In this document: piece by piece, positions 4,262-24,925 of the stretch
Layout of the letters: each line of letters begins with the position of its first letter
Position numbering within the stretch: the stretch's first letter is position 1
Made by a program: the position numbers and the translations under genes
Notes under the pieces: model-generated
The model's input: the letters and a program-made list of their open reading frames with translations, nothing else
Told to the model about the DNA's origin: nothing
The model's database searches: none
Source of the DNA: Clostridia bacterium
GTDB lineage: Bacteria; Bacillota; Clostridia; TANB77; CAG-508
DNA length: 33,254 bases
NCBI GenBank assembly: GCA_022795675.1
Contig: JAAWHY010000001.1
Span: 1-33,254 of the forward strand
Direction: 5' to 3'

Positions 4262-5326
4262 CTACTTACTTTTCTTATTTCTTAATGACATATATGATAT
4301 TGTTAGTATTGCTATTACTGATAATATACTTAAATATATTGTTCTACCTGTTTTAGGTAATACATTTGGTGTTTCTGTTGGTGTATTATTTTCTGTAGTT
4401 GATGGTACTTGTTCACTTGGCTGTTGTCCATTGCTTGATGGCGGTACTTGATTATTATTAACTGGTGGAACTACACCTGTTGATTGTTCTTGTACTGCAA
4501 TTGTAAAACTTTTACTTTCAATTACAGCATCTGCATTATCTCTATCTATTAGTTTTAAGGTAATAGTATAGTCTCCTTTACCACTAAATACTCCTCTTGT
4601 AGTAATTTTTTTAATTACATCTTTTCCACCAATTGGATCACCGTCAGCACTTCCCCATCCACTTTGAATAATATCATGTTCTAAATTTTGGTTATCTGTT
4701 GAAAGTAATCTTACATTTTCACCTGTTGGAGTTATTGCTTCTGCTAATATTCTTGTGTGTGCATAGTTTTTACCCATACTACTTGAAATAACTATTTCCA
4801 TTTCTTTTTCTTCGTTTGGTATTATATCTCCTGTATAATTTAGGGCAATATTGTAATCAACATATACTGGTTCTACTATTAAGTTTTTAATAATAGGAAC
4901 AGTAATATCATCAATTGGGTTTGCATCTGGAGTTCCTAATCCTGTTAATGTAATACTTAAATCAGTAGGGTTTGTAGTTATCATTCCTTCTTTTGCCTTG
5001 AAAGTAATACTCATTGTGCTACGTGGTGCTGGATCTACACCTGCATTATAATGGTATACTACAATAACTTTAGAACCTGTATTATTTGCGGTACCTCCTT
5101 CTGCTGATATATATTCTAATAAGTTTTCATCATAATCTACATTTACTGTATATGCACCTAGATCTTGTCCGAAATCAATATTTAATGTTACTGTCTCTCC
5201 TGGATGCACTGTTGTTTTATCTGTTGTTATGTTTAAATTGTTTAGAGTTGCTGCATAAACATTTGCTGTGAAAGTTAGTAAAAATAAAATAAAGAAAATC
5301 GTAATAATATTTGTTAATTTTTTCAT
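4262..5326 (-). CDS. LPXTG (LPKTG) cell-wall-anchored surface protein with an N-terminal cohesin-like domain
   Basis: 354-aa ORF with signal peptide MKKLTNIITIFFILFLLTFTANVYA. GAYTVNVDYDENLLEYISAEGG is cohesin-like. A P/T/N/Q-rich stalk follows, then LPKTG (nt 4346..4360), a hydrophobic segment and an RNKKSK tail. Confidence 0.85.
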   Translation of the reverse strand: MKKLTNIITIFFILFLLTFTANVYAATLNNLNITTDKTTVHPGETVTLNIDFGQDLGAYTVNVDYDENLLEYISAEGGTANNTGSKVIVVYHYNAGVDPAPRSTMSITFKAKEGMITTNPTDLSITLTGLGTPDANPIDDITVPIIKNLIVEPVYVDYNIALNYTGDIIPNEEKEMEIVISSSMGKNYAHTRILAEAITPTGENVRLLSTDNQNLEHDIIQSGWGSADGDPIGGKDVIKKITTRGVFSGKGDYTITLKLIDRDNADAVIESKSFTIAVQEQSTGVVPPVNNNQVPPSSNGQQPSEQVPSTTENNTPTETPNVLPKTGRTIYLSILSVIAILTISYMSLRNKKSK

Positions 5327-5487
5327 TAAAAATTTGCCTCCTTTTTTAGTTTTATAAAAAATATTATTTCAATTTTTTGTATTTTTATATTTGAAAGTTT
5401 TTGCACTCTCGGAATTTTTTTCTAAATTTTAAAAATGTGACTGAAAATATTTATAAATCTATAGAACTTTCCTAAGAATAGACAAAA

Positions 5488-5528
5488 GTGGCTTCGCCAC
5501 ACGGACGCCCAAAGGGCGCCCCTACAAT
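5488..5528 (-). repeat. short REP-like GC-rich hairpin element, copy A
   Basis: Plus strand: gtggcttcgccac-a-cggacgccc-aaa-gggcgcccctacaatt. The minus strand starts AATTGTAGGGGCG followed by two hairpins. It is the same element as copy C (19451..19492). Confidence 0.8.
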
Positions 5529-6176: not shown

Positions 6177-7040
6177 TTAGTTATTTTTTATATAAATTAT
6201 TTCTCTTTTTTTAGTATAACGGATTGTTCCGAATACTAATAGACCTGTGTCTTGGTCATTTTCATCCTTGATGTATTCATTTCTGTCTAACTGTACAATA
6301 GATTCTGTAAAAGTATCATCTTTATACTTTTCTAATAATCCATTGCTATAAAATGATTTATGTTTTCCAGCTATATAGTTTAGATCAGTTTCATTAACAC
6401 CTGGGTTTTTTAAACTGAAATTTGTAATTCCTCCATACATATCACAATTTACCCTCTGTGTTACATTATTATTTTGATATGTATTTGCACTTAACCATGA
6501 TGTATATACAAGTTCCTTTTTAGGATCTGTTTCTCCTGTTGAATATATTTTTTTTACTAAAATATCTAAAGAGTTTTCATCTAAATTAGTCATAGATGTT
6601 ATATTTGGTTCTAAACTATTTACTTTTGATATTATATTATCATTTAAATATTTACATATTTCAGCTTTTATATCATTACTCTTCTTTTTTTCAATTTGTG
6701 ATGCACTATGATACCTATCATTCCAAAAACAACTAGACACTTGTGATTCAGTGTCTAAGTCAAATCTAGCTACAATTTCACCAGAATCTATTATTGTTAC
6801 TCCATATCCTTCCTGAGCATATCTGTATATTGTTGGTATCATATCTTGGAACTTTACTTTTCTATTAGCTCCATAACTTGTATCTGCATTATAATTTACA
6901 TATGTAGTTTTATCTATCGCTTCAAATATCTTATCTGTAGTATCCTTTGCAACAGAGGTCATTCGGAAAAATACACTTAAAGCTAATGAAAATACAAATA
7001 CAGCAAAAAACATTTTTAAGGCTTCAGCCGCATTCTCCAT
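6177..7040 (-). CDS. large pilin-like protein with the MENAAEAL N-terminus (candidate minor or tip pilin)
   Basis: 287-aa ORF. It starts MENAAEALKMFFAVFVFSLALSVFF, sharing the M-E-N-A-x-x-A-L start and a single hydrophobic helix with three upstream paralogues. It has a GGAGG RBS. Confidence 0.55.
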   Translation of the reverse strand: MENAAEALKMFFAVFVFSLALSVFFRMTSVAKDTTDKIFEAIDKTTYVNYNADTSYGANRKVKFQDMIPTIYRYAQEGYGVTIIDSGEIVARFDLDTESQVSSCFWNDRYHSASQIEKKKSNDIKAEICKYLNDNIISKVNSLEPNITSMTNLDENSLDILVKKIYSTGETDPKKELVYTSWLSANTYQNNNVTQRVNCDMYGGITNFSLKNPGVNETDLNYIAGKHKSFYSNGLLEKYKDDTFTESIVQLDRNEYIKDENDQDTGLLVFGTIRYTKKREIIYIKNN

Positions 7041-7060
7041 TTAATTTCCTCCTTATATAA

Positions 7061-7489
7061 TTATTTTCTTGTTATTGATATTTGTTCAATATATCCATCA
7101 GCACTCTTTTTTTCCATTACTACATCATATCTTGCTGAACTAACTATTTGTGCACCAAATTTTGTAAGTTCTGTTGAATCTGACATTTCCTTTTTCTCTA
7201 TTGATAGTTTACTATCAGTCATTATAATTGTTATTATACGTCCACTAGAGTTTGTAGCATTATTTGTAGATACAGTATTTAATAATGTTTGTACTGCAGA
7301 TCCTTTTTGAGTACCTTGATAAGTAGTAAATCTATTATTAAATGCAGTAATTTCTTGTTCTGTTGTCATGTCTTGTGCTTCGGTTACAAGTCCTTGTGAT
7401 GATTGTACTATTACCATACCTATACTAATTAAAACTATAACAATTAAAATAGCTCCTGCTATTAATAGTGCTTTTGACGCATTCTCCAT
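7061..7489 (-). CDS. pilin-like protein (candidate major subunit)
   Basis: 142-aa ORF starting MENASKALLIAGAILIVIVLISIGMVIV. The ITAFNNRFTTYQG...GSAVQTLLNTVSTNN motif is shared with paralogues. It has its own near-consensus promoter (7580..7608) and a GGAGG RBS. Confidence 0.6.
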   Translation of the reverse strand: MENASKALLIAGAILIVIVLISIGMVIVQSSQGLVTEAQDMTTEQEITAFNNRFTTYQGTQKGSAVQTLLNTVSTNNATNSSGRIITIIMTDSKLSIEKKEMSDSTELTKFGAQIVSSARYDVVMEKKSADGYIEQISITRK

Positions 7490-8067: not shown

Positions 8068-8119
8068 TATAAATATGTTCCTTTCTAGTAATTAAATATT
8101 ATCCTTATGCATACATATT

Positions 8120-8148
8120 GGGCGGAGGCAAGCCCCGCCCCTACAATT
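8120..8148 (-). repeat. short REP-like GC-rich hairpin element, copy B
   Basis: Plus strand: gggcgg-a-ggc-aa-gcc-ccgccc-ctacaatt. The minus strand starts AATTGTAGGGGCGGGG. It lies between two pilin-like genes. Confidence 0.75.
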
Positions 8149-8168
8149 GTTTCTATTTATATACAAAA

Positions 8169-16310: not shown

Positions 16311-16650
16311 CAGTTTGCGACTTTTGTAATATAAACGTCATATCAACGTAATATTTTTGTAATATTCATATAATAATCCAATGTGATATACGGAAAGTCC
16401 TAGTTTTTATATTTCTATCAAGCACAAATGGATTTTAAAAATTAGTATATTATTATCAACAAGTTCGAAATTAATGACACTTACTTTTATATTTAATTTC
16501 ACATATAGTTTACAATGTTGTATACTTAATTTTTTTGAAAATATATTCCTTTATTTATTTTAAAATTATTAAATTTACTAATACATAGATTTGTTTTCCA
16601 TTTTTACCAAATTTTTCTTGTTTATTTTTTTTTATATTGCACAATATATA

Positions 16651-16685
16651 CTATGAAATGATTTGGTGACCAAATTGTTTCATAG
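16651..16685 (+). promoter_or_regulatory. 35-nt palindrome / 5'-leader hairpin just upstream of the SASP gene RBS
   Basis: ctatgaaatgatttggtgaccaaattgtttcatag forms a 16-bp stem (two G-U wobbles in RNA) around a 3-nt loop and ends 17 nt before GGAGG. Confidence 0.5.
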
Positions 16686-16716
16686 CGAAACGTTTTATTC
16701 TAGGAGGTGAATGATA

Positions 16717-16920
16717 ATGGCAAACAATTCTAACAAAAAATTAGTTCCAGAAGCTATGGACGCTTTAGATAAATTCAAATATGAAGTAGCTAGTGAAGTT
16801 GGTGTAACTTTAAAAGATGGTTATAATGGTAACCTATCTTCAAGAGACGCTGGTAGAATCGGTGGTAACATGGTTAAAAAGTTAATACAACAAGCTGAAA
16901 ACAACATGGCTAACAAATAA
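16717..16920 (+). CDS. ssp: alpha/beta-type small acid-soluble spore protein
   Basis: MANNSNKKLVPEAMDALDKFKYEVASEVGV...LSSRDAGRIGGNMVKKLIQQAE carries both conserved SASP blocks. The ATG at 16717 sits 9 nt after GGAGG (16703..16707), whereas the track start at 16711 is too close. Confidence 0.9.
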   Translation: MANNSNKKLVPEAMDALDKFKYEVASEVGVTLKDGYNGNLSSRDAGRIGGNMVKKLIQQAENNMANK

Positions 16921-16983
16921 TTAAATTACTAGCTTATAATTTTTGCAGGAATATTTCTTTCCCACTTTTATGTTTATACATAA

Positions 16984-17016
16984 GGGCAGGAACTAAATGT
17001 TCCTGCCCTTTTATTA
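16984..17016 (+). terminator. rho-independent terminator after ssp (possibly bidirectional, also facing the purM end)
   Basis: gggcaggaac-taaat-gttcctgccc followed by ttttatta. Confidence 0.8.
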
Positions 17017-17065
17017 TTCTAATAACTTTAATTATGCACATTTTTTTACGTCTCCAATGTGCATT

Positions 17066-18106
17066 TTACCAATTAAATTCTCCTACTACCTCTACCTGTT
17101 TATTTCCTGGCACTATTTCTCCTATTTCGTAACAATTTACTCCTTGCATCTTTATGTGATTTATTATTTTTTCTGCATTTTCTTTTTTTGCTACTATTGT
17201 TAATCCAACACCTAAATTAAATGTTCTTAACATCTCTCCCGCTTCAACATTTCCATATTTCTTTATTAGCTTAAATATGTCCAATATTTTATATTTGCTT
17301 GCATCTATTTTTGCATTTACATTTTCAGGTAATATTCTATTTAAGTTTTCTTTTATTCCTCCACCTGTTATATGTGCAAGTCCTGTGATAATATTTTCTG
17401 AAAATAAGTCTTTTATTGTTTTATAATAACATCTATGTGGTTCTAATATTGCTTCAATAAAAGTTTTTTCTCCTACTTTTTCTTCTAATATTTCTGGTGA
17501 TTGTTTCATTATCTGTCTTACTAATGTATATCCATTTGTATGAACTCCACTAGATTCAACTGATATTACTACATCTCCTACTTCTATTTTTGATCCATCT
17601 ATTATTGATTCTTTATCTACTATTCCTACTATACTTGATGTTAATATATATGTACCTGCTTCTAATACTCCTGGTTGTTCTGATGTTTCGCCCCCTGTTA
17701 ATACACATCCTTGTGCTTTACATGCATCTGATACTGCTTTTACTATTTTGTTTATTGCTATTTTGTCCATTTTTCCACAGATTATAGCATCTTGAACTGT
17801 TAATGGTTTTGCTCCCATTACTATACAATCGTTTATTAAGTGATTTATCATGTCATATGATACATTTTCTAATTTATCATATTGTGCTGCTATTAATTGT
17901 TTTGAACCTGGTTCTTCTGTTTTTAATACTAATACTGGATTTTTATATTCTTCAAATTTTATATCATATAGTGATGAGAATGCTCCTATTTTATTTAATA
18001 CTCTTTTGTTGTCTGTTGCTAAACTGTCTGCCATATCCTTTTTTGCTTGATTTGCTTCGTCTATGTTTACATCATATTTTAAACTATTATTTTCCATGTT
18101 TTTCAT
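17066..18106 (-). CDS. purM: phosphoribosylformylglycinamidine cyclo-ligase (AIR synthetase)
   Basis: 346-aa ORF with PurM-typical blocks: GAFSSLYD, DCIVMGAKPL, GCVLTGGETSEQPG, GVHTNGYTLVR and GLAHITGGG. Its start overlaps the rimO stop (ATGA). Confidence 0.9.
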   Translation of the reverse strand: MKNMENNSLKYDVNIDEANQAKKDMADSLATDNKRVLNKIGAFSSLYDIKFEEYKNPVLVLKTEEPGSKQLIAAQYDKLENVSYDMINHLINDCIVMGAKPLTVQDAIICGKMDKIAINKIVKAVSDACKAQGCVLTGGETSEQPGVLEAGTYILTSSIVGIVDKESIIDGSKIEVGDVVISVESSGVHTNGYTLVRQIMKQSPEILEEKVGEKTFIEAILEPHRCYYKTIKDLFSENIITGLAHITGGGIKENLNRILPENVNAKIDASKYKILDIFKLIKKYGNVEAGEMLRTFNLGVGLTIVAKKENAEKIINHIKMQGVNCYEIGEIVPGNKQVEVVGEFNW

Positions 18107-19410
18107 TCCTTTCTTAATTTCCCAATTAGGTCGTATTCTTGTACATTTACAATCTCCACATCTACAAATTTTCCTATTAAATCTTTGTCTGTGGTATTTT
18201 CTATAAATACTACTCCATCTTCATCTGGAACATCCATATATGTTCTTCCTATTAAATATTTGCCATCAAAAGATCTTTCTTCTATTAAGGTTTTATAAGT
18301 TTTTCCAACTTTACCTTTTAGAATTTCTTCGGATATTTCCTGTTGTAATTTCATAATCTTATTATATCTAGCTTTTTTAGTATTTAGATGAATTTGATTT
18401 TCCATTTTTTCTGCTGGAGTTCCATCTTCTTTTGAATATATAAAAGTACCTAATTTATCAAACCTAGTATCTCTTACAAATTCATATAATTTATTAAAAT
18501 CTTCTTCTGTTTCACCTGGGAATCCTACTATTAAGCTAGTTCTTAAAATGGCTTCAGGAATTTGATTTCTTATCTTGTTAATTAATTTTCTTATGCTTTC
18601 TCCATCACTTTTTCTATTCATTCGTTTTAATACTTCATCTGAAATATGTTGTATTGGAATATCAAAATATTTACATATTTTATCATTTTCTTTTACTACT
18701 TTTATTAATTCATCTGTAATACTTTCTGGATATGCATATAAAAATCTAATCCATTCAATACCATCTATTTTGCATAATTCCTGTAAAAGTTCAGCAAGTC
18801 TTGGCTTTTTATATAAATCAATTCCATATTTTGTAGTGTCTTGGGCAATTACAATTAATTCCTTTATGCCTTTTTTAGATAAACTTTTTGCCTCTTCTAT
18901 AATTTCCCCAAATTCTCTTGAAATATATCGCCCTTGTATCTTTGGTATAGCACAATATGTACAATGATTACTACATCCTTCTGCAATCTTTAAATATGAC
19001 ATTGTATCTCCTGTTGTGATTACTCTATCTTTCCAACTTAAACATTCATTAGATATTTCTAATTTTAATAACTCAGATATTTTTGTCCATATTTTATTGT
19101 AATCTTTGATTTTTATAAATAAATCAACTTCGGGTAATGCTTTTCTAAGTTCCTCTTCATATCTTTCTACCATGCAACCTATTACAATAAGATATTTACA
19201 TCTCCCATCTTTATATTGTGCCATCTCAAGTATAGTATCTATTGCCTCTTGCTTCGCAGATTCAATGAAACCACATGTATTTATAACAATAATAGCTGCA
19301 TCTTTTTCATTGTTTACAATAGTAAAATTGCGCTTTTTAAATAGTCCTATTACTTCTTCTGTTACTACTAGATTTTTGCTACATCCTAGTGATATAAATC
19401 CTACATTCAT
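18103..19410 (-). CDS. rimO: ribosomal protein S12 methylthiotransferase
   Basis: 435-aa ORF with an N-terminal ISLGCSKNLV..E block, the radical-SAM motif CSNHCTYCAIP and a C-terminal TRAM-like domain (GKFVDVEIVNVQEYDLIG). Confidence 0.85.
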   Translation of the reverse strand: MNVGFISLGCSKNLVVTEEVIGLFKKRNFTIVNNEKDAAIIVINTCGFIESAKQEAIDTILEMAQYKDGRCKYLIVIGCMVERYEEELRKALPEVDLFIKIKDYNKIWTKISELLKLEISNECLSWKDRVITTGDTMSYLKIAEGCSNHCTYCAIPKIQGRYISREFGEIIEEAKSLSKKGIKELIVIAQDTTKYGIDLYKKPRLAELLQELCKIDGIEWIRFLYAYPESITDELIKVVKENDKICKYFDIPIQHISDEVLKRMNRKSDGESIRKLINKIRNQIPEAILRTSLIVGFPGETEEDFNKLYEFVRDTRFDKLGTFIYSKEDGTPAEKMENQIHLNTKKARYNKIMKLQQEISEEILKGKVGKTYKTLIEERSFDGKYLIGRTYMDVPDEDGVVFIENTTDKDLIGKFVDVEIVNVQEYDLIGKLRKE

Positions 19411-19450
19411 TGTTTTCCCTTTCTTTTCTAGAAACTTATTTACAAGAAAA

Positions 19451-19492
19451 GTGGCTTTGCCACGCGGACGACCAATGGTCGCCCCTACATTA
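19451..19492 (-). repeat. short REP-like GC-rich hairpin element, copy C
   Basis: gtggctttgccac-g-cggacgacca-a-tggtcgcccctacattaa has the same architecture as copy A, with compensatory changes in the inner stem. Confidence 0.8.
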
Positions 19493-19537
19493 ATTATTCA
19501 TTATTAATGATTCACTATTAATATTAAATGGTGACAT

Positions 19538-19653
19538 GGTGCACCCAGTAAAATTTGCTTCGCAAATTTTCCAAGCTTTATTCATGAAAGCACAAAATAA
19601 AAAAATACTTTTCTTATTTTGTGCTTTCTCTCATCTCCACGTATCCCTACGTT
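19538..19653 (-). repeat. long modular REP-like element, copy F
   Basis: Contains the identical 28-nt module (19546..19573), a perfect 14-bp hairpin aaagcacaaaataa/ttattttgtgcttt (19587..19627), and then ctctcatctccacgtatccctacg abutting the DUF1292 stop codon. Confidence 0.8.
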
Positions 19654-19960
19654 ATTCTTCATCTATAAAATCGAATTCTTCCTTAAATTTTTCTTTAAAC
19701 ATGTTAAATACTGTATTAAGAATTTCTTCATCTTCAACACTTACATAAGATTCTTCATCTTCTGAATCAGTATCTTCAACTCGTAAAATAACTACTTCAT
19801 CAGCATCTTCTTCCTCGCTTGCTGGTAACAACACAACATATTCTTCTCCGTCTAACTCTATCAAATCTAAGAACTCGAACTTAACTTCCTCTCCATTTTC
19901 ATCATTTAAAACTATAACATTTTCTAGTTCTTCTTCCATTCCATTTTGTTCGTTATCCAT
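19652..19960 (-). CDS. DUF1292 family protein
   Basis: 102-aa acidic ORF. VLNDENGEEVKFEFLDLIELDGEEYVVLLP...VVILRVED is the DUF1292 signature, and the conserved neighbour ruvX is present. Confidence 0.8.
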   Translation of the reverse strand: MDNEQNGMEEELENVIVLNDENGEEVKFEFLDLIELDGEEYVVLLPASEEEDADEVVILRVEDTDSEDEESYVSVEDEEILNTVFNMFKEKFKEEFDFIDEE

Positions 19961-19991
19961 TATTAATTTCCTTCCTTTCCACAGTTTAAAA

Positions 19992-20417
19992 TTATAAATT
20001 TTTATTTATATATGTTTCTAATATATATCCGGCAGATATTGTATCTACTATATTTCTTTTATTTTTCCTATTTACATTAAGAATATTCATAGTTTTATGT
20101 GCTGCTACTGTTGTTAATCTTTCATCCATAGTATCAATCTTAATTTTATTAAATTTGCATTTTAATTTATGTAGAAATTTATTTGTTATTTCTACCCTAT
20201 CAGAACTTGTCCCATCCATATTAAAAGGCATACCTAGAACTATTGTATCAATTTCATATTCATTCAAAATTTCTTCTAATCTTTTTAATACTTTTTTATC
20301 ATTTCCGTCATGATGTATTGTTTCTAATCCTTGAGATGTTATTCCTAAAGGATCTGAAATAGCAATTCCAACTCTTGCATCTCCATAATCTATACCTAAT
20401 ATTCTCATATTATTCAA
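19992..20417 (-). CDS. ruvX: Holliday junction resolvase-like / pre-16S rRNA nuclease (YqgF)
   Basis: MRILGIDYGDARVGIAISDPLG and DERLTT blocks are present. The true start may be the ATG at 20408. Confidence 0.88.
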   Translation of the reverse strand: MNNMRILGIDYGDARVGIAISDPLGITSQGLETIHHDGNDKKVLKRLEEILNEYEIDTIVLGMPFNMDGTSSDRVEITNKFLHKLKCKFNKIKIDTMDERLTTVAAHKTMNILNVNRKNKRNIVDTISAGYILETYINKNL

Positions 20418-20664
20418 TTATTCCTATATAATTTTCTACCATTCTTTCTAATAGTTCATCACGTTCAATTTGTCTTATTATATTTCTTGCATTTTTGTGA
20501 CTTGTAATATATGTTGGATCACCTGATAAAATATATCCTACTATTTGATTTACAGGATTATATCCTTTTTCAACTAGAGCATCATAAACTTGTCTTAAAG
20601 TTTCCTTAGTCTTTAAGTTTTTGTCTTTTTCTAATTTAAAATTCATAGTTTTATCCATTTCCAT
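20410..20664 (-). CDS. ireB: IreB / UPF0297 family regulatory phosphoprotein
   Basis: 84-aa ORF. VYDALVEKGYNPVNQIVGYILSGDPTYITSHKNARNIIRQIERDELLE is the UPF0297 signature. Confidence 0.85.
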   Translation of the reverse strand: MEMDKTMNFKLEKDKNLKTKETLRQVYDALVEKGYNPVNQIVGYILSGDPTYITSHKNARNIIRQIERDELLERMVENYIGIIE

Positions 20665-20683
20665 AATCTTTTCCTCCTATTTT

Positions 20684-21805
20684 TTATATATTATTTACAT
20701 CGTATTCTGTTATTGGTGCATTATCTAAGTATTCCTCTTGCTTCTTTAAAATTTTCTCTAAAGCTGTACCTTTATAATATGTGGTTAATACAATATTTAA
20801 CTTAATCTTAGCTATTCTTTTATTGTCTTTTTTATTATTCTTTTCATTGTCATCAACCATTTCTATTTTTAAATTTTCTACAGCATTTTTCATATCTATA
20901 ATAAATCTTGTAACTCCATCTACTTCTGCTCCTGAAAATGCAATTACAAATTTTGGACCCATATATCTTACAAATATGTATTCATTTGATAAATTCTCTT
21001 TTATATAATCACACATATCTATTATTACCTGGTTTCCAGTTTCTCTGTTAAATTGTTTATTAATTTGTTCTAAATTTGCAATTCCAATCATACATATTGT
21101 TGAGGTAGTATATCTATCAATTATTTTTCTTCCCTCGTTAAATAAATATTCGCTTGTCTTTAAGGCAGAATAGTAGTCGTCTCTTGTTAAACTTTCAACA
21201 ATATTTTGATAATTAACAATTCTAAATACAGATAATATATTATCTTTTACTACCTCAAGTATTGTTGTATCTATATTATCAAAAGCATGTGGTAGACCAC
21301 TTTCTATTATCCAATATCCAATATAAACATTTTCTATATATAGTGGAAAAAATATTGCTGCCTTTGCTCTACCAAATTCGCTTTTTTGATATGGTAATCT
21401 TTCATCTTCATTATCTACAGTAATATATTTAGGTGTAGCAGTTGTTATACTGTCTTTAAACACATCTTCATTGTGTAGACTTCTAAGGTTGTCCCAATGC
21501 TTTTCTTCAACATTTGAAGCTTTTATTACATATTCTGTTCCATTAAATTCTACAATAGTAGAATATTTTATGTCATATTCTTCTATTAAAATTTCATTTA
21601 TTTTCTTTATTTTCTGATCTACAGTTAATGTATCTCCAGCCGTTGCCATAAAATCCTGCAATACATTTAATCCATTTATCTTCTGATTTATATTTTTGTA
21701 ATTGTTTATTTCTTTATGTATTTTTATATTAAATAAGATTAACATGATTATTATAACAACTAAAACTATTATTACTCCTATTATCCACATATCAGTCCAT
21801 GTCAC
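20684..21805 (-). CDS. membrane-anchored GAF-like plus degenerate GGDEF domain protein
   Basis: 373-aa ORF with an N-terminal TM helix. The C-terminal domain aligns by eye to the GGDEF fold (ICMIGIANLEQINKQFNRETGNQVI...IFVRYMGPKFVIAF), with MGPKF (nt 20948..20962) in place of GGDEF. Confidence 0.6.
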   Translation of the reverse strand: MTWTDMWIIGVIIVLVVIIIMLILFNIKIHKEINNYKNINQKINGLNVLQDFMATAGDTLTVDQKIKKINEILIEEYDIKYSTIVEFNGTEYVIKASNVEEKHWDNLRSLHNEDVFKDSITTATPKYITVDNEDERLPYQKSEFGRAKAAIFFPLYIENVYIGYWIIESGLPHAFDNIDTTILEVVKDNILSVFRIVNYQNIVESLTRDDYYSALKTSEYLFNEGRKIIDRYTTSTICMIGIANLEQINKQFNRETGNQVIIDMCDYIKENLSNEYIFVRYMGPKFVIAFSGAEVDGVTRFIIDMKNAVENLKIEMVDDNEKNNKKDNKRIAKIKLNIVLTTYYKGTALEKILKKQEEYLDNAPITEYDVNNI

Positions 21806-21812
21806 TCCTTTT

Positions 21813-24320
21813 CTATTTATATTGTCTTTTCATCTCATCTAAAGTACTACTCATATTATTTGAAAATCTTGATCTACTTTGTTCATAATTCATATAACCT
21901 GCATTACCTACATTTTCTCTATTTCTTCTCTTAAGTGTACCGCCTGATATAACTGGATATACTTGATCTGCTAATCTATTTAAGCAATTTAGGAAAACTT
22001 TATTATATCCTCTAGTTGATATTTCACAATTTGCAATTCCTGATAGATAATTAGAATATGCCTCCATATCAAATGGAATTACTATTTTGTTTATTGTTTT
22101 CATATCAAACAACCTGTCTTGTATAGACATTTCTGGATCATTATATGTTGACATTCCCCCAACTATCATCTCTTCATTGAGTCCTCTTACTTTTTGAGCT
22201 TTGTTTATAACAGCTCTCAATTTTTCTGGTTGTAAAATATTATTTAGCTTTAACTTTCTTAAGAATTCTGTTAATGGTTGTATTGTTAATACATCCATGC
22301 TTTGAACCATATATATTTCCTGTGCTACTCTGAAATATTCTTTATTTGTTGAATAATCACAATCTAATAATACTAAAGAATAATTTTTAACTAAAGTTGA
22401 TAGCATATTTTCTATACTATAGTCTGAATTTTTAATGTTAGGTGATGAAGTATATACAGTTAAATTTCTATTTACCTCTATTCCTGCAGGGTTTCCTTGT
22501 TTTAAGTTTTCCATAGATGAATACGCAATTTCTCTTAATTCTTCTCTATTTTCTGTATATATATAATATGAATTCTTATTTTTTGTTAAGTCTACTACAG
22601 CTGTTTTTATTCCTCTATTTGATAGTATATCAGCAATATTATTTACTAAAAAAGAGACTCCATTTTTTGATGTACCTACAAAAGATACTACCTTTTTATC
22701 TTGAGTTAATAGATATGAAATATCTACTATTTTCCCATCATCTTCAATTTCTTCTAAATCCTTACTTGGTGATACACCATAATTATTATTTCTGTATGTA
22801 CTGTCATTTACTGGAGAAGTGTTTATTCTATTATCATGTATATCTTGTAGTATATTATTTTCAAAACTTGGTGTACCATAGCTTTGTGGTTCTTCAATTC
22901 TATTCATTTGTATAGCTTCTTTTTCCCTAAAGCTTGACACTCTTGGTTGTCTTCTTTCCCCAAAATTCGATAATTTTACAGGTTCCTCTTTAAAACTTGG
23001 TAAAGCTGGAGATTCTTCTTCAAAACTTGGTAAAATTGGAGATTCCTCCTCAAAGCTAGGTAAAACTGGTGGTGTTTCTTCAAATCCTGGTAATTGTGTA
23101 CTTGTATCTTCTTCAAATCCTGGTAATTGCTGTATTTGTGTCCCAATTTCAGTATTTGGTATAACCTGCTCCTGCATCTCTGTATTTGGAATAGGATTTT
23201 TTCTAGGTCTTCCTCTTCCTCTTTTTGGAGTTTCTACTTTCTGTTCTGGTTCGACTATAATTTTTTTAGGTCTTCCTCTTCCTCTTTTTACAGGTTGATC
23301 TGCTGGAGGAGTTATTCCTTCAACTTCAAGTTCTATTGAAGCTTTTATTGGAGCTGTCGATTTTATAGAAGCTATTGTTTCTATTGGTTCTATTGGAGCT
23401 ACTCCTTCTATACTCTCTATTTCTTCAAGTATTGCATTTGTATCATTTCCAACAAACTCTGTTCTTATTGGTTCTGGAGTTGATTCTGCAATTTTTCTTA
23501 CCTCATTATTTTTTCTAATATTTGATGGTATTATAACTGGTCCCATTGGTTGACTTGAGTGGCTATCTACAATCTTAGAAACATTTATATTGCTTTTCTT
23601 TATGGCTTCTTTTCTTGGGGTTGTAGCTGTACTATATGTCATTATAGATTGATATTTAGGTGACTCTGCTTCAAGCACTGCTTTTACTTCCATTGGTAAA
23701 AATTTTATTATTATCTTTAGTTGTTCATCACTATATTGCTCTGCTATACTATTAAAACTTTCAACATATTTGCTTTCATTTTTTCCTAGCTTTCTGTAAT
23801 GTGTTAAAATATTTTGAATTTCTACTTCACTTACATTTTTATCATCTTCACGTTCATATTCTCCTTGCTCAATTCTGTAATATATTTTAGCTTCTTTTTT
23901 TGTTCTTGGTTTATTTAACAAATTGCATACATTTTCTATGGTTCTATCGTTTCCAATTAAGGCATCATATACCCCTATTGAAAACAATTTTACTAATAAA
24001 TTATCAGATTTTTCTCTTCTCTCTGAGCAAATTACAACTATTGGTATATCTCTTCCTTCTCTATCAATTGCTTCATCACTTATACCATCTAATTTTTCAA
24101 ATATAAATTTATCTATTGTGTCATAATTATTATTAGTAAATGGCTCTAAATCTTCACTTATTACTATTCTATCATATGTTTGATTTCTTTGTAATTCTTT
24201 AATGATAGCATTAAAATAATAAACATTTTTTGAAGATATTATTTCTTTATATTCTGTTTGATATACTTTAACTATTTTTTCTGCTATATCTTCTGTACTA
24301 ACTGCAAATAAAACTTTCAT
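21813..24320 (-). CDS. REC-like domain, disordered linker with two AT-hooks and PxFEE repeats, then a degenerate MinD/ParA-like (CpaE/TadZ-like) domain
   Basis: The track ORF starts at 24380, but the ATG at 24320 (MKVLFAVSTED...) follows a GGAAGGAG RBS and lies 6 nt after the upstream stop. KRGRGRPKK is at nt 23262..23288 and KRGRGRPRK at 23199..23225. LPGFEE/LPSFEEE repeats span 22983..23126. The C-terminal VVSFVGTSKNGVSFLVNNIADILS...TAVVDL...LVLLDCD has a MinD-like fold pattern without GKT. Confidence 0.6.
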   Translation of the reverse strand: MKVLFAVSTEDIAEKIVKVYQTEYKEIISSKNVYYFNAIIKELQRNQTYDRIVISEDLEPFTNNNYDTIDKFIFEKLDGISDEAIDREGRDIPIVVICSERREKSDNLLVKLFSIGVYDALIGNDRTIENVCNLLNKPRTKKEAKIYYRIEQGEYEREDDKNVSEVEIQNILTHYRKLGKNESKYVESFNSIAEQYSDEQLKIIIKFLPMEVKAVLEAESPKYQSIMTYSTATTPRKEAIKKSNINVSKIVDSHSSQPMGPVIIPSNIRKNNEVRKIAESTPEPIRTEFVGNDTNAILEEIESIEGVAPIEPIETIASIKSTAPIKASIELEVEGITPPADQPVKRGRGRPKKIIVEPEQKVETPKRGRGRPRKNPIPNTEMQEQVIPNTEIGTQIQQLPGFEEDTSTQLPGFEETPPVLPSFEEESPILPSFEEESPALPSFKEEPVKLSNFGERRQPRVSSFREKEAIQMNRIEEPQSYGTPSFENNILQDIHDNRINTSPVNDSTYRNNNYGVSPSKDLEEIEDDGKIVDISYLLTQDKKVVSFVGTSKNGVSFLVNNIADILSNRGIKTAVVDLTKNKNSYYIYTENREELREIAYSSMENLKQGNPAGIEVNRNLTVYTSSPNIKNSDYSIENMLSTLVKNYSLVLLDCDYSTNKEYFRVAQEIYMVQSMDVLTIQPLTEFLRKLKLNNILQPEKLRAVINKAQKVRGLNEEMIVGGMSTYNDPEMSIQDRLFDMKTINKIVIPFDMEAYSNYLSGIANCEISTRGYNKVFLNCLNRLADQVYPVISGGTLKRRNRENVGNAGYMNYEQSRSRFSNNMSSTLDEMKRQYK

Positions 24321-24325
24321 TTGTT

Positions 24326-24736
24326 TTAACTCCTTCCGAATTTTACTACAACAACAAATATAAATGGCAATACCTGACATACTATAAGTATCGTTACAAA
24401 AGCTATCATAGCAAAAAATCCTTTGTATCTTGTACCCATATTTCTAATTCCTAATGCATATTGAAATATAGCTGAAATTGATATTCCTAAAAAACATAAT
24501 GGTATACTTAAAAATCTAATTTTATTTAATATGTAAGCCGTAAATCCGTAAGTTTCATTGCCATATGCTTCTATATAATCATCCAATTCTTTCAATGATT
24601 TTTCTTTTATCTCAATTAATTTTCCTGCTGTATCTGATTCTAATAAAGCTTCTCCACTTGATGCATAAACTTTATATGAAATAACCATAGATAAAATACA
24701 TATCACTACTAACAAAGCAATTACCATCTTTTTCAT
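24326..24736 (-). CDS. small integral membrane protein, unknown function
   Basis: 136-aa ORF with an N-terminal signal/anchor and about three further hydrophobic helices. It appears translationally coupled to the next gene. Confidence 0.5.
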   Translation of the reverse strand: MKKMVIALLVVICILSMVISYKVYASSGEALLESDTAGKLIEIKEKSLKELDDYIEAYGNETYGFTAYILNKIRFLSIPLCFLGISISAIFQYALGIRNMGTRYKGFFAMIAFVTILIVCQVLPFIFVVVVKFGRS

Positions 24737-24770
24737 ATTTTATTCTCCTTATATTTCTACTTAAAATAAT

Positions 24771-24865
24771 GTGAAAAATTTGCTTAACAAATTTTATGGA
24801 AATCTATATAAAAAATATACTTTCTCATATAGATAAAATTGATATAAATATCATACACTACAATT
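24771..24865 (-). repeat. long modular REP-like element, decayed AT-rich copy H
   Basis: gtgaaaaatttgcttaacaaattttatgg (compare the 28-nt module), the hairpin atctatat/atatagat (24802..24834), the ctttctcat block and the tail cactacaatt all appear in the same order as in copies E/F/G. Confidence 0.6.
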
Positions 24866-24878
24866 AAAAAAATATCAA
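24850..24878 (-). promoter_or_regulatory. sigma-A type promoter for the 136-aa/835-aa gene pair
   Basis: The minus strand reads TTGATA, a 17-nt spacer, then TATGAT. The spacer and -10 overlap the tail of repeat H, so most of H would lie in the 5' UTR. Confidence 0.45.
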
Positions 24879-24925
24879 GTTTTTTTTATAATTTAATTAA
24901 TTATTTCCGTAACTATTTAATAGTT

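Follow-up and report, generated by a model that had tools for sequence, protein, structure and literature searches.

Clusters of GC-rich DNA stand out in an AT-rich genome, and the locus considered here raises the question of what its short GC-rich hairpins are and which enzyme, if any, placed them there. They lie in a 33,254-nt stretch of DNA from a Clostridia bacterium (hereafter the window). A sequence-only reading of the window had located four such hairpins, with a common architecture and a single orientation, and had proposed that they are REPs of the type recognised by RAYTs (REP-associated tyrosine transposases).

Four GC-rich hairpins between co-directional genes

All four hairpins are located where they had been reported, and the strand bearing the GTAG head is the minus strand in every case:

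REP copy A, 5502-5525, minus strand: GTAGGGGCGCCCTTTGGGCGTCCG; 8-bp stem including one G·T wobble, 3-nt loop
REP copy B, 8120-8144, minus strand: GTAGGGGCGGGGCTTGCCTCCGCCC; longer-stem variant with a CGCCC foot
REP copy C, 19465-19488, minus strand: GTAGGGGCGACCATTGGTCGTCCG; commonest variant in the family
REP copy D, 25807-25830, minus strand: GTAGGGCCGAGCATTGCTCGTCCG; begins directly after the truB stop codon

The minus-strand consensus of the four elements is (A/T)TGTAGGG(G/C)CG-NNN-loop-N'N'N'-CG(T/C)CC(G), and the minus strand is also the coding strand for every long ORF of the window. All four short copies, together with the three long forms described below, are intergenic within these 33 kb. 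Searching for TGTAGGGGCG-N9-CGTCCG with at most 3 mismatches retrieved copies A, C and D only, on the minus strand, and gave 0 matches in 100 shuffles. Both ends of the motif are over-represented, with 5 occurrences of CCCTACA in the window (1.4 expected) and 8 of CGTCCG (0.25 expected). A covariance model trained on non-window copies only scored C at 40.6, A at 39.1, D at 36.8 and B at 13.2 bits (E 0.41 for B), and its search of the window returned no copy beyond A-D. The frame once thought common to the four copies holds for A, C and D; B is a longer-stem variant that ends in CGCCC, not CGTCC. As the window has a GC content of only 25-33%, the elements are conspicuous islands of 67-77% GC.

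Each copy folds into an 8-bp stem closed by a loop of 3-5 nt, B being the variant with a longer stem. On the GTAG strand, the anatomy reads GTAG-GGGCG-NNN-loop-N'N'N'-CG(T/C)CC. Five outer pairs are conserved, one of them a G·T wobble, and three inner pairs are free to vary while staying complementary. GTAG abuts the foot of the stem in all four copies, REPs being expected to carry a 5' GT[AG]G within 0-2 nt, and the stem and loop lengths of the copies, along with compensatory changes in the family, agree with the further expectation that the palindrome of a REP is GC-rich, has ~7-20 bp in its stem and 2-5 nt in its loop, and is kept paired by compensatory change. The recurring "unpaired A" of the earlier description turned out to be the complement of the T in the minus-strand wobble, where the stem runs continuously over 8 bp. 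Stems are more stable on the minus than on the plus strand (A, -22.8 vs -18.1 kcal/mol; C, -20.8 vs -15.9 kcal/mol). Since the pair that is G·T (G·U in RNA) on the minus strand becomes an A·C mismatch on the plus strand, the GTAG strand must be the one whose fold is used, whether in single-stranded DNA or in RNA.

The short copies of the window are singletons and do not form the two inverted REPs at a fixed short distance that define REPINs and BIMEs. An Rfam search found nothing at the elements, either at the gathering score or with E up to 10, and only the latter gave matches elsewhere, at chance level. A tRNA scan of the window detected no genes.

A REP family common to gut Clostridia

One genome per species was scanned with the pattern AWTGTAGGGSCG-N9-CGTCCG, in which the N9 was left free. 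At least 118 loci matched, showing that the motif is not confined to the window. Nearly all of the matches listed are from MAGs of gut Clostridia of 24-59% GC, with Oscillospiraceae, Ruminococcus, Faecousia, Acutalibacteraceae and uncultured Clostridiaceae among the hosts, and the inner stem ACC/GGT of copy C was present in 40 of the 129 matches listed. Viral contigs yielded only 8 matches to the REP pattern.

The inner stem varies but mostly remains paired. Three Watson-Crick inner pairs were observed in 117 of the 129 matches listed, and 41 of their 53 distinct N9 inserts were fully Watson-Crick paired, compared with 3.2 (maximum 9) in 1000 shuffles. The four copies alone are too few to establish the covariation claimed for them, which is strongly supported with 54 distinct members: their alignment contains 62 double-change cells vs 20.4±3.3, a value reached in 0 of 500 shuffles, and slid controls collapse. 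Inverted doublets are frequent in the wider family (97 of the 242 matches listed), with their two copies 13-35 nt apart.

Fifteen fixed bases of the head and foot recur across genomes of 21-66% GC. The class-wide spread of the family is a direct observation, and a head and foot common to one bacterial class over so wide a GC range is unusual for REPs. The evidence supports the view that the four hairpins are genuine REPs of the GTAG-headed "canonical long" type and belong to one family common to many gut Clostridia.

Association with RAYT genes

All ORFs of the at least 118 REP loci were clustered all-against-all. The top-ranked cluster groups RAYT-like ORFs and is the only protein cluster present in 5 REP loci among the loci listed, while phmmer identified RAYT-like homologues in 4 of the 118 loci listed. 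The clustered protein is ~160 aa long and contains the motifs MPNHVH (HUH), IWQK and Y..ENP. Across the RAYTs, the motifs seen were MPNHIH, MPNHVH or MPDHIH, followed by IWQK and by YIENNP, YIDENP or YIQNNI. The best NCBIfam match of these proteins is NF047646, the REP-associated tyrosine transposase (E 1e-16 to 1e-19), with scores of 58-69 bits that lie under the curated equivalog cut-off of 80 bits; a best family that still scores below its cut-off points to a divergent clade. The only PDB match to a profile of the family was 4ER8, TnpAREP of E. coli (E 7e-11). The associated proteins, all encoded outside the window, display the traits of RAYT subclass 2.4: NH[IFV]H, WQ, a YIxNNP-like tyrosine motif and in-frame REPs.

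A further 80 RAYT loci were drawn from metagenomes by peptide patterns alone, so that their choice was independent of the REP. A strict REP occupied both in-gene sites in 21 of the 80 loci (21-27 of 80 with in-frame REPs). Others exhibit the classical REPtron arrangement, REP(+) upstream and REP(-) downstream. RAYT genes flanked in this way are seen in L130, L131, L140 and L186 as well as in L211-L216 and L219-L221. In loci L211-L216 (GC 0.21-0.25), aattGTAGGGGCGCCCTTTGGGCGTCC ends ~30 nt before the ATG start codon and its reverse complement begins 25 nt past the stop; compared with copy A of the window, these flanking REPs are identical at 27/27 and 28/29 positions. The same REP is located 86-107 nt upstream of the RAYT gene in L219-L221 (GC 0.28-0.30), where it is 24/24 identical to A. 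Given these identities, copy A is the cognate REP of a low-GC RAYT clade. In L183, another low-GC RAYT (27% GC) is followed by GTAGGGGGCGCCCTTTGGGCGTCCG, and its homologues constitute a large family of ~150-aa proteins, some of which were named RayT by JGI.

The REP family is therefore associated with REPtrons, a cognate RAYT gene with inverted flanking REPs being found at the family level. The proposal that a GTAG head followed by a palindrome denotes a RAYT-type REP is borne out by GTAG at the stem foot, by the at least 118 loci and by RAYT-type Y1 genes flanked by the same REP. The RAYT/TnpA-Y1 gene that the sequence-only reading had suggested looking for exists in the family with such flanks, but none is encoded within the 33-kb window. 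GC-rich REPs had also been thought unusual for a genome this AT-rich, an expectation at odds with the REPtrons of gut-Clostridia contigs of 21-30% GC.

Among the RAYT loci L123-L202, genes carry two in-frame REPs, inverted and at fixed sites that bracket the HUH-coding segment. The sense copy is translated as VGAxxxRP and the antisense copy as GRxxxAPT, and the inner stem is equal within a gene and different between genes. Examples are:

L125, 1343-1810: RAYT locus with an in-frame REP pair
L137, 6001-6468: RAYT locus with an in-frame REP pair
L141, 6001-6450: RAYT locus with an in-frame REP pair

In-frame REP pairs cannot be regarded as novel in themselves, Quentin et al. (2018, PMC6006769) having already listed in-frame insertion among the features typical of subclass 2.4. 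What may be new in detail is that the two sites form a fixed pair and that the copies in them change in concert. In other low-GC RAYT loci the gene is flanked by a different GTAG REP type, GTAGGGG(T/A)CGGCGTCC(T/C)CGACG(A/T)CCC, indicating that several REP types coexist in this RAYT group:

L197, 4449-5152: different GTAG REP type
L165, 211-1708: different GTAG REP type
L164, 476-675: different GTAG REP type, also in frame inside the gene

Copies, strains and strand bias in the host of the window

The window belongs to a mouse-gut bacterium whose nearest available relative is MAG MGBC122997 (L023), ~89% identical over 7.6 kb. Metagenomes holding the window also hold RAYT-like contigs ~80% identical to L183, with the following depths:

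X1: RAYT-like contig 14, window contig 15-16
X2: RAYT-like contig 11.7, window contig ~10-13
X9: RAYT-like contig 25.3, window contig 22.3
X49: RAYT-like contig 35.7, window contig 34-38

A cognate RAYT in the organism of the window is suggested by this depth matching only, which is co-abundance evidence and not proof.

The REP is multi-copy in the host metagenomes. The k-mer depth of the exact A variant is ~7x the single-copy depth in X1 and ~6x in X5; for X2, with its uneven single-copy depth, 10x is a very rough figure. Some metagenome contigs bear three A-type copies within 400 nt. Because other inner-stem variants go uncounted at 90% likeness, the true REP total is higher.

Copy D occupies the orthologous site in L023 and, being kept in a relative only ~89% identical, is old and stable rather than recently mobile. 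An extra REP, GTAGGGGCGATTAGTAATCGCCC, is present in L023 at 6892-6914, 20 nt past the D orthologue and opposite window position ~25780, where the window has none. The truB ORF of L023 runs into REP sequence, its TGA stop missing there. In place of the spacer containing copy B (8068-8183), one strain has 11 nt and another has 89 nt; the strain with the 11-nt replacement possesses an exact 28-nt copy of B at a different site, on a contig of 11.7 kb. No indel with exact REP borders and no clean insertion or excision was detected among the strains compared, B being absent only along with a larger replacement of its spacer.

GC skew of the plus strand is negative across the whole window, which puts the GTAG strand of all 7 elements on the G-rich strand, i.e., the mRNA strand and lagging-strand template. 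A strand bias relative to replication, suggested by the sequence-only reading as something to look for, was found in the singleton REPs of the 118 loci listed, where the GTAG strand is on the G-rich strand in a ratio of 62:22 (p = 1.5e-5), a bias confounded with gene orientation. Single-strand transposition at the replication fork is established for IS608 and ISDra2; apart from this confounding, the GTAG-strand bias would fit such a process.

Second hairpins and a putative role in transcripts

An additional hairpin follows copies A and C:

Second small hairpin after REP A, 5484-5500, minus strand: GTGGCGAAGCCAC then TTTT; 1 nt past REP A; intrinsic-terminator-like
Second hairpin after REP C, 19447-19463, minus strand: GTGGCAAAGCCAC then TTTT; in the terminator scan list

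Both had been noticed before, and their GCGAAGC core had been equated with an exceptionally stable DNA mini-hairpin. The hairpins are real, but we rejected the mini-hairpin idea as this core is not conserved, relatives having GAGGCAAAGCCTC or GTGGCACCGCCAC. Each consists of a 5-bp GC stem, a 3-nt loop and a U4 tail. Such a GC stem with a U-run is found in the second hairpins of A and C and neither in the REP hairpins themselves nor at B and D. A small GC hairpin with a T-run also follows the REPs of the low-GC relatives L002, L042 and L075, and the stems of the module covary (GAGGC/GCCTC, GTGGC/GCCAC). With the core not kept and the stems covarying, the conserved feature is a terminator-like hairpin; taken with its T-run, what follows A and C is better read as a small intrinsic terminator to which the REP is joined than as a mini-hairpin. 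Just downstream of copy D is the best promoter-like site (25799-25771) of the scanned region 13000-27500.

These positions suggest a function at the RNA level. The copies of the window stand between co-directional housekeeping or pilus genes and, as the GTAG strand is the mRNA strand, they would be transcribed as stable GC hairpins. Judging from their position, such hairpins most likely serve as 3' exonuclease barriers or partial terminators, and A and C, joined to a 5-bp GC hairpin and U-run, may act as compound terminator-like modules.

Long forms and an invariant palindrome

Three elements of ~120 nt with REP-like ends, absent from the sequence-only reading, were also identified:

Long form 1, 13588-13706, minus strand: GTAAGGGCGGACG ... 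AT-rich hairpin ... invariant 27-mer palindrome ... GGGCGTCCG
Long form 2, 26788-26904, minus strand: GTAGGGGGCGGCG ... hairpin ... 27-mer ... GGGGCGTCCG
Long form 3, ~19530-19650, minus strand: degenerate ends GTAGGGATACGTGG ... CCATGTCACC
Invariant 27-nt perfect palindrome GGAAAATTTGCGAAGCAAATTTTACTG, 26797-26823, 13601-13627 and 19546-19572, minus strand: inside the long forms

On the minus strand, the long forms start with GTA(G/A)GGG...CG and two of them end in GGGCGTCCG. Long form 1 has a REP-like outer stem, CGGACG/CGTCCG, around ~105 nt, and in long form 3 this stem is altered on both sides (ACGUGG/CCAUGU). The interior contains an AT-rich hairpin with several compensatory changes, observed in four sequences only. 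Long form 2 is ~95% conserved at the orthologous site of L023, the only match outside the window when nhmmer was run with the long-form core; the core is absent from the viral contigs searched. The long form is confined to the lineage of the window, with one additional copy end at another site in another strain, X5, where it stands beside position 9383 and the window has none. An exact look-up of the 635-aa ATPase of the window retrieved no record, and that of its 233-aa protein retrieved only Logan contigs of 2.5-3 kb, which end inside long form 1.

The 27-nt palindrome is a repeat family in its own right. It reaches ~13 copies per genome equivalent by k-mer depth (182 vs a single-copy depth of 13.8 in X1, 106 vs 8.3 in X2, 282 vs 22.4 in X9) and often has flanks unlike those of the long form. 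It may serve as an operator, or else form a small repeat family of its own. A promoter was considered and rejected, there being no convincing -10 element at the right spacing. Likewise, the long form is not a simple insertion into a REP loop, as no complementary remnants of an inner stem remain beside the insert. Long forms might instead be "REPs with cargo", in which a RAYT-recognisable outer stem (GTAGGG...CG / CGTCC) surrounds a 105-nt module made of the covarying terminator-like hairpin and the invariant palindrome. We regard this as a speculative and rather improbable idea; were it true, a transposase system would be placing preassembled regulatory units, each a terminator with an operator or small RNA, between housekeeping genes.

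Other repeats and hairpins were noted in the window. An imperfect palindrome of ~130 nt (9381-9510), with the centre CCGGAGGCGTAC-TTTTT-GTACGTCCGAGG, fills the spacer between two pilus-locus genes, and strain X9 has 58 other letters instead of the stretch 9366-9476. The pilus locus is Tad-like, with a T2SSE ATPase (11620-13527), a cohesin-domain surface protein (4262-5326) and a run of pilin paralogues: positions 7421-7489, 8598-8666, 9282-9350 and 7012-7059 are the paralogous 5' ends of four small genes with Flp/pilin-like N-termini (MENASKALLIA...). Other strains carry a divergent allele in place of the pilin gene at 7071-7390. A 77-nt direct repeat (28261-28337 and 28379-28455, 83% identical, 118-nt spacing) has one copy in the spacer after the start of a 1020-aa ORF, probably infB, and the other within its first codons. 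A strong bidirectional terminator-like hairpin, AAGGGCAGGAAC...GTTCCTGCCCTT, is found at 16886-17020 and has weak sub-threshold Rfam matches to L20_leader and Termite-leu.

Origin of the hairpins

As a whole, the observations are very probably best explained by a class-wide REP family that was made by RAYTs and whose copies in the window may now have a role as RNA. The hairpins might alternatively be relics, laid down by an ancestral RAYT that has since been lost or inactivated, the copies being either co-opted as RNA hairpins or neutral. Such an origin would explain why copy D and long form 2 have kept their orthologous positions in a relative only ~89% identical, why no precise indel was seen among strains and why the 33 kb contain no RAYT, and it has precedents in the genomes with REPs and without tnpAREP noted in PMC6006769. 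It seems unlikely to us in view of the depth-matched RAYT-like contigs in four metagenomes with the organism. Moreover, the ~6-7 copies of the exact A variant, some of them tightly clustered, argue for recent copying or homogenisation, and the window lacks both the extra REP found 20 nt past D in L023 and the long-form end found at 9383 in X5.

The remaining explanations dispense with RAYTs altogether. All copies of the window are downstream of genes and in sense orientation, and A and C have a hairpin with a T-run, as would be seen with ordinary, locally evolved terminators or mRNA stabilisers whose GTAG...CGTCC frame arose by convergence. Yet the REP hairpin itself has no U-run and the same 15 fixed bases occur in genomes from 21% to 66% GC. 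Convergence cannot explain inverted doublets, copies inside coding regions and identical REPs flanking RAYT genes, so this scenario is already contradicted and we give it hardly any credence. Selection at the RNA level only, as for a structured regulatory RNA or a protein-binding RNA motif, is equally implausible. It would agree with the sense orientation in the window and with the strand-specific fold imposed by the G·U wobble, but the same strand specificity is expected of a single-stranded DNA substrate; no Rfam family matches even with E up to 10, and the family occurs next to unrelated genes and, as doublets, in both orientations (97 of the 242 matches listed). Lastly, the hairpins could be ends or miniature derivatives (PATEs) of IS200/IS605 elements, moved by a multicopy TnpA(IS200) and not by a RAYT. 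The enzymes do share the HUH-Y1 superfamily, with weak matches to NF033573 and PF01797, and a hairpin with a 5' guide tetranucleotide is a logic common to both systems. The proteins are nevertheless matched far more closely by the RAYT model (E 1e-17) than by the IS200 model (E 1e-3 to 1e-4, 18-22 bits), and they contain WQ and Y...N(P), which are motifs of class 2. Furthermore, the hairpins flanking their genes are identical and inverted instead of being distinct left and right ends on one strand, and no tnpB adjoins the RAYT genes in the loci examined, which makes an IS200/IS605 origin very improbable.

By analogy with E. coli TnpAREP and IS200/IS605, we propose that the RAYT, a HUH-Y1 single-strand DNA transposase of a subclass 2.4-like kind, would bind the folded hairpin, read the 5' GTAG and cut and rejoin single-stranded DNA beside it, most likely on the lagging-strand template. 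Such cutting and rejoining could be how REP copies arise, spread and stay alike.

Comparison with known REP/RAYT systems

Nearly everything established about REP/RAYT systems comes from Proteobacteria, with genomics adding Cyanobacteria and Bacteroidetes. The kind of system described here is already known; in the literature searched, neither this REP family nor any REP/RAYT system of Clostridia/Firmicutes hosts is described. That literature mentions Clostridia in two places only, one line stating that Group 1 RAYTs are present and another placing the IS200-type subclass 1.1 there. A large REP/RAYT family in gut Clostridia includes genomes of 21-30% GC, in which a 70% GC hairpin stands out. The covariance model and a matched candidate enzyme/substrate pair, a P0136-type RAYT with GTAGGGGCGCCCTTTGGGCGTCC, are available for biochemistry. 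One head and foot across a class bears on the question of whether RAYTs are domesticated, vertically inherited partners or are moved horizontally. In practice, these repeats break short-read assemblies of gut MAGs and extend or end ORF calls, as in the truB gene of L023.

The closest known systems are those of subclass 2.4 TnpAREP, equivalent to Group 4 of Bertels (Quentin et al. 2018, PMC6006769; Bertels et al. 2017, PMC5581495). This subclass is described as having the motifs NH[IFV]H/WQ/YIxNNP (Table 1, PMC6006769), in-frame REP insertions and "canonical long" REPs with three G-C foot pairs, and is plentiful among Cyanobacteria and Bacteroidetes and "scattered" elsewhere (PMC6006769). The clostridial system shares with it the 5' GTAG at the foot, the three G-C (or G·T) pairs at the bottom of the stem, the RAYT gene with inverted flanking REPs, the in-frame REPs and the NH[IV]H, WQ and YIxNNP-like motifs. 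It departs from it in the 15 head and foot bases kept class-wide over 21-66% GC, unlike described REP families, which tend to be confined to a species or genus, and in that the low-GC RAYTs nearest to the REP of the window (L183, L211, L219) have no in-gene insertions.

More distant likenesses were also apparent. The REP/BIME system of E. coli, with its TnpAREP of subclass 2.2 (4ER8, PMC3479197), likewise combines a GTAG guide 5' of a GC-rich imperfect palindrome with an HUH-Y1 enzyme, and its REPs are also extragenic, between co-directional genes, where they are thought to stabilise upstream mRNA. Unlike the clostridial ones, E. coli REPs are longer (~35 nt), have bulged stems and are arranged in BIMEs; the two enzymes share only their core and belong to different subclasses, the clostridial pair being known from sequence alone. 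Doublets 13-35 nt apart that could fold into a larger hairpin relate the wider family to the REPINs of Pseudomonas (Bertels & Rainey 2011, PMC3116915), from which the window differs in that its four short copies are singletons and its long forms are one REP-like stem around ~105 nt, not two REPs. Finally, the 5-bp GC stem, 3-nt loop and U4 tail just past REPs A and C resemble Rho-independent terminators, unlike the REP hairpin, which has no U tail, and unlike B and D, which have no second hairpin.
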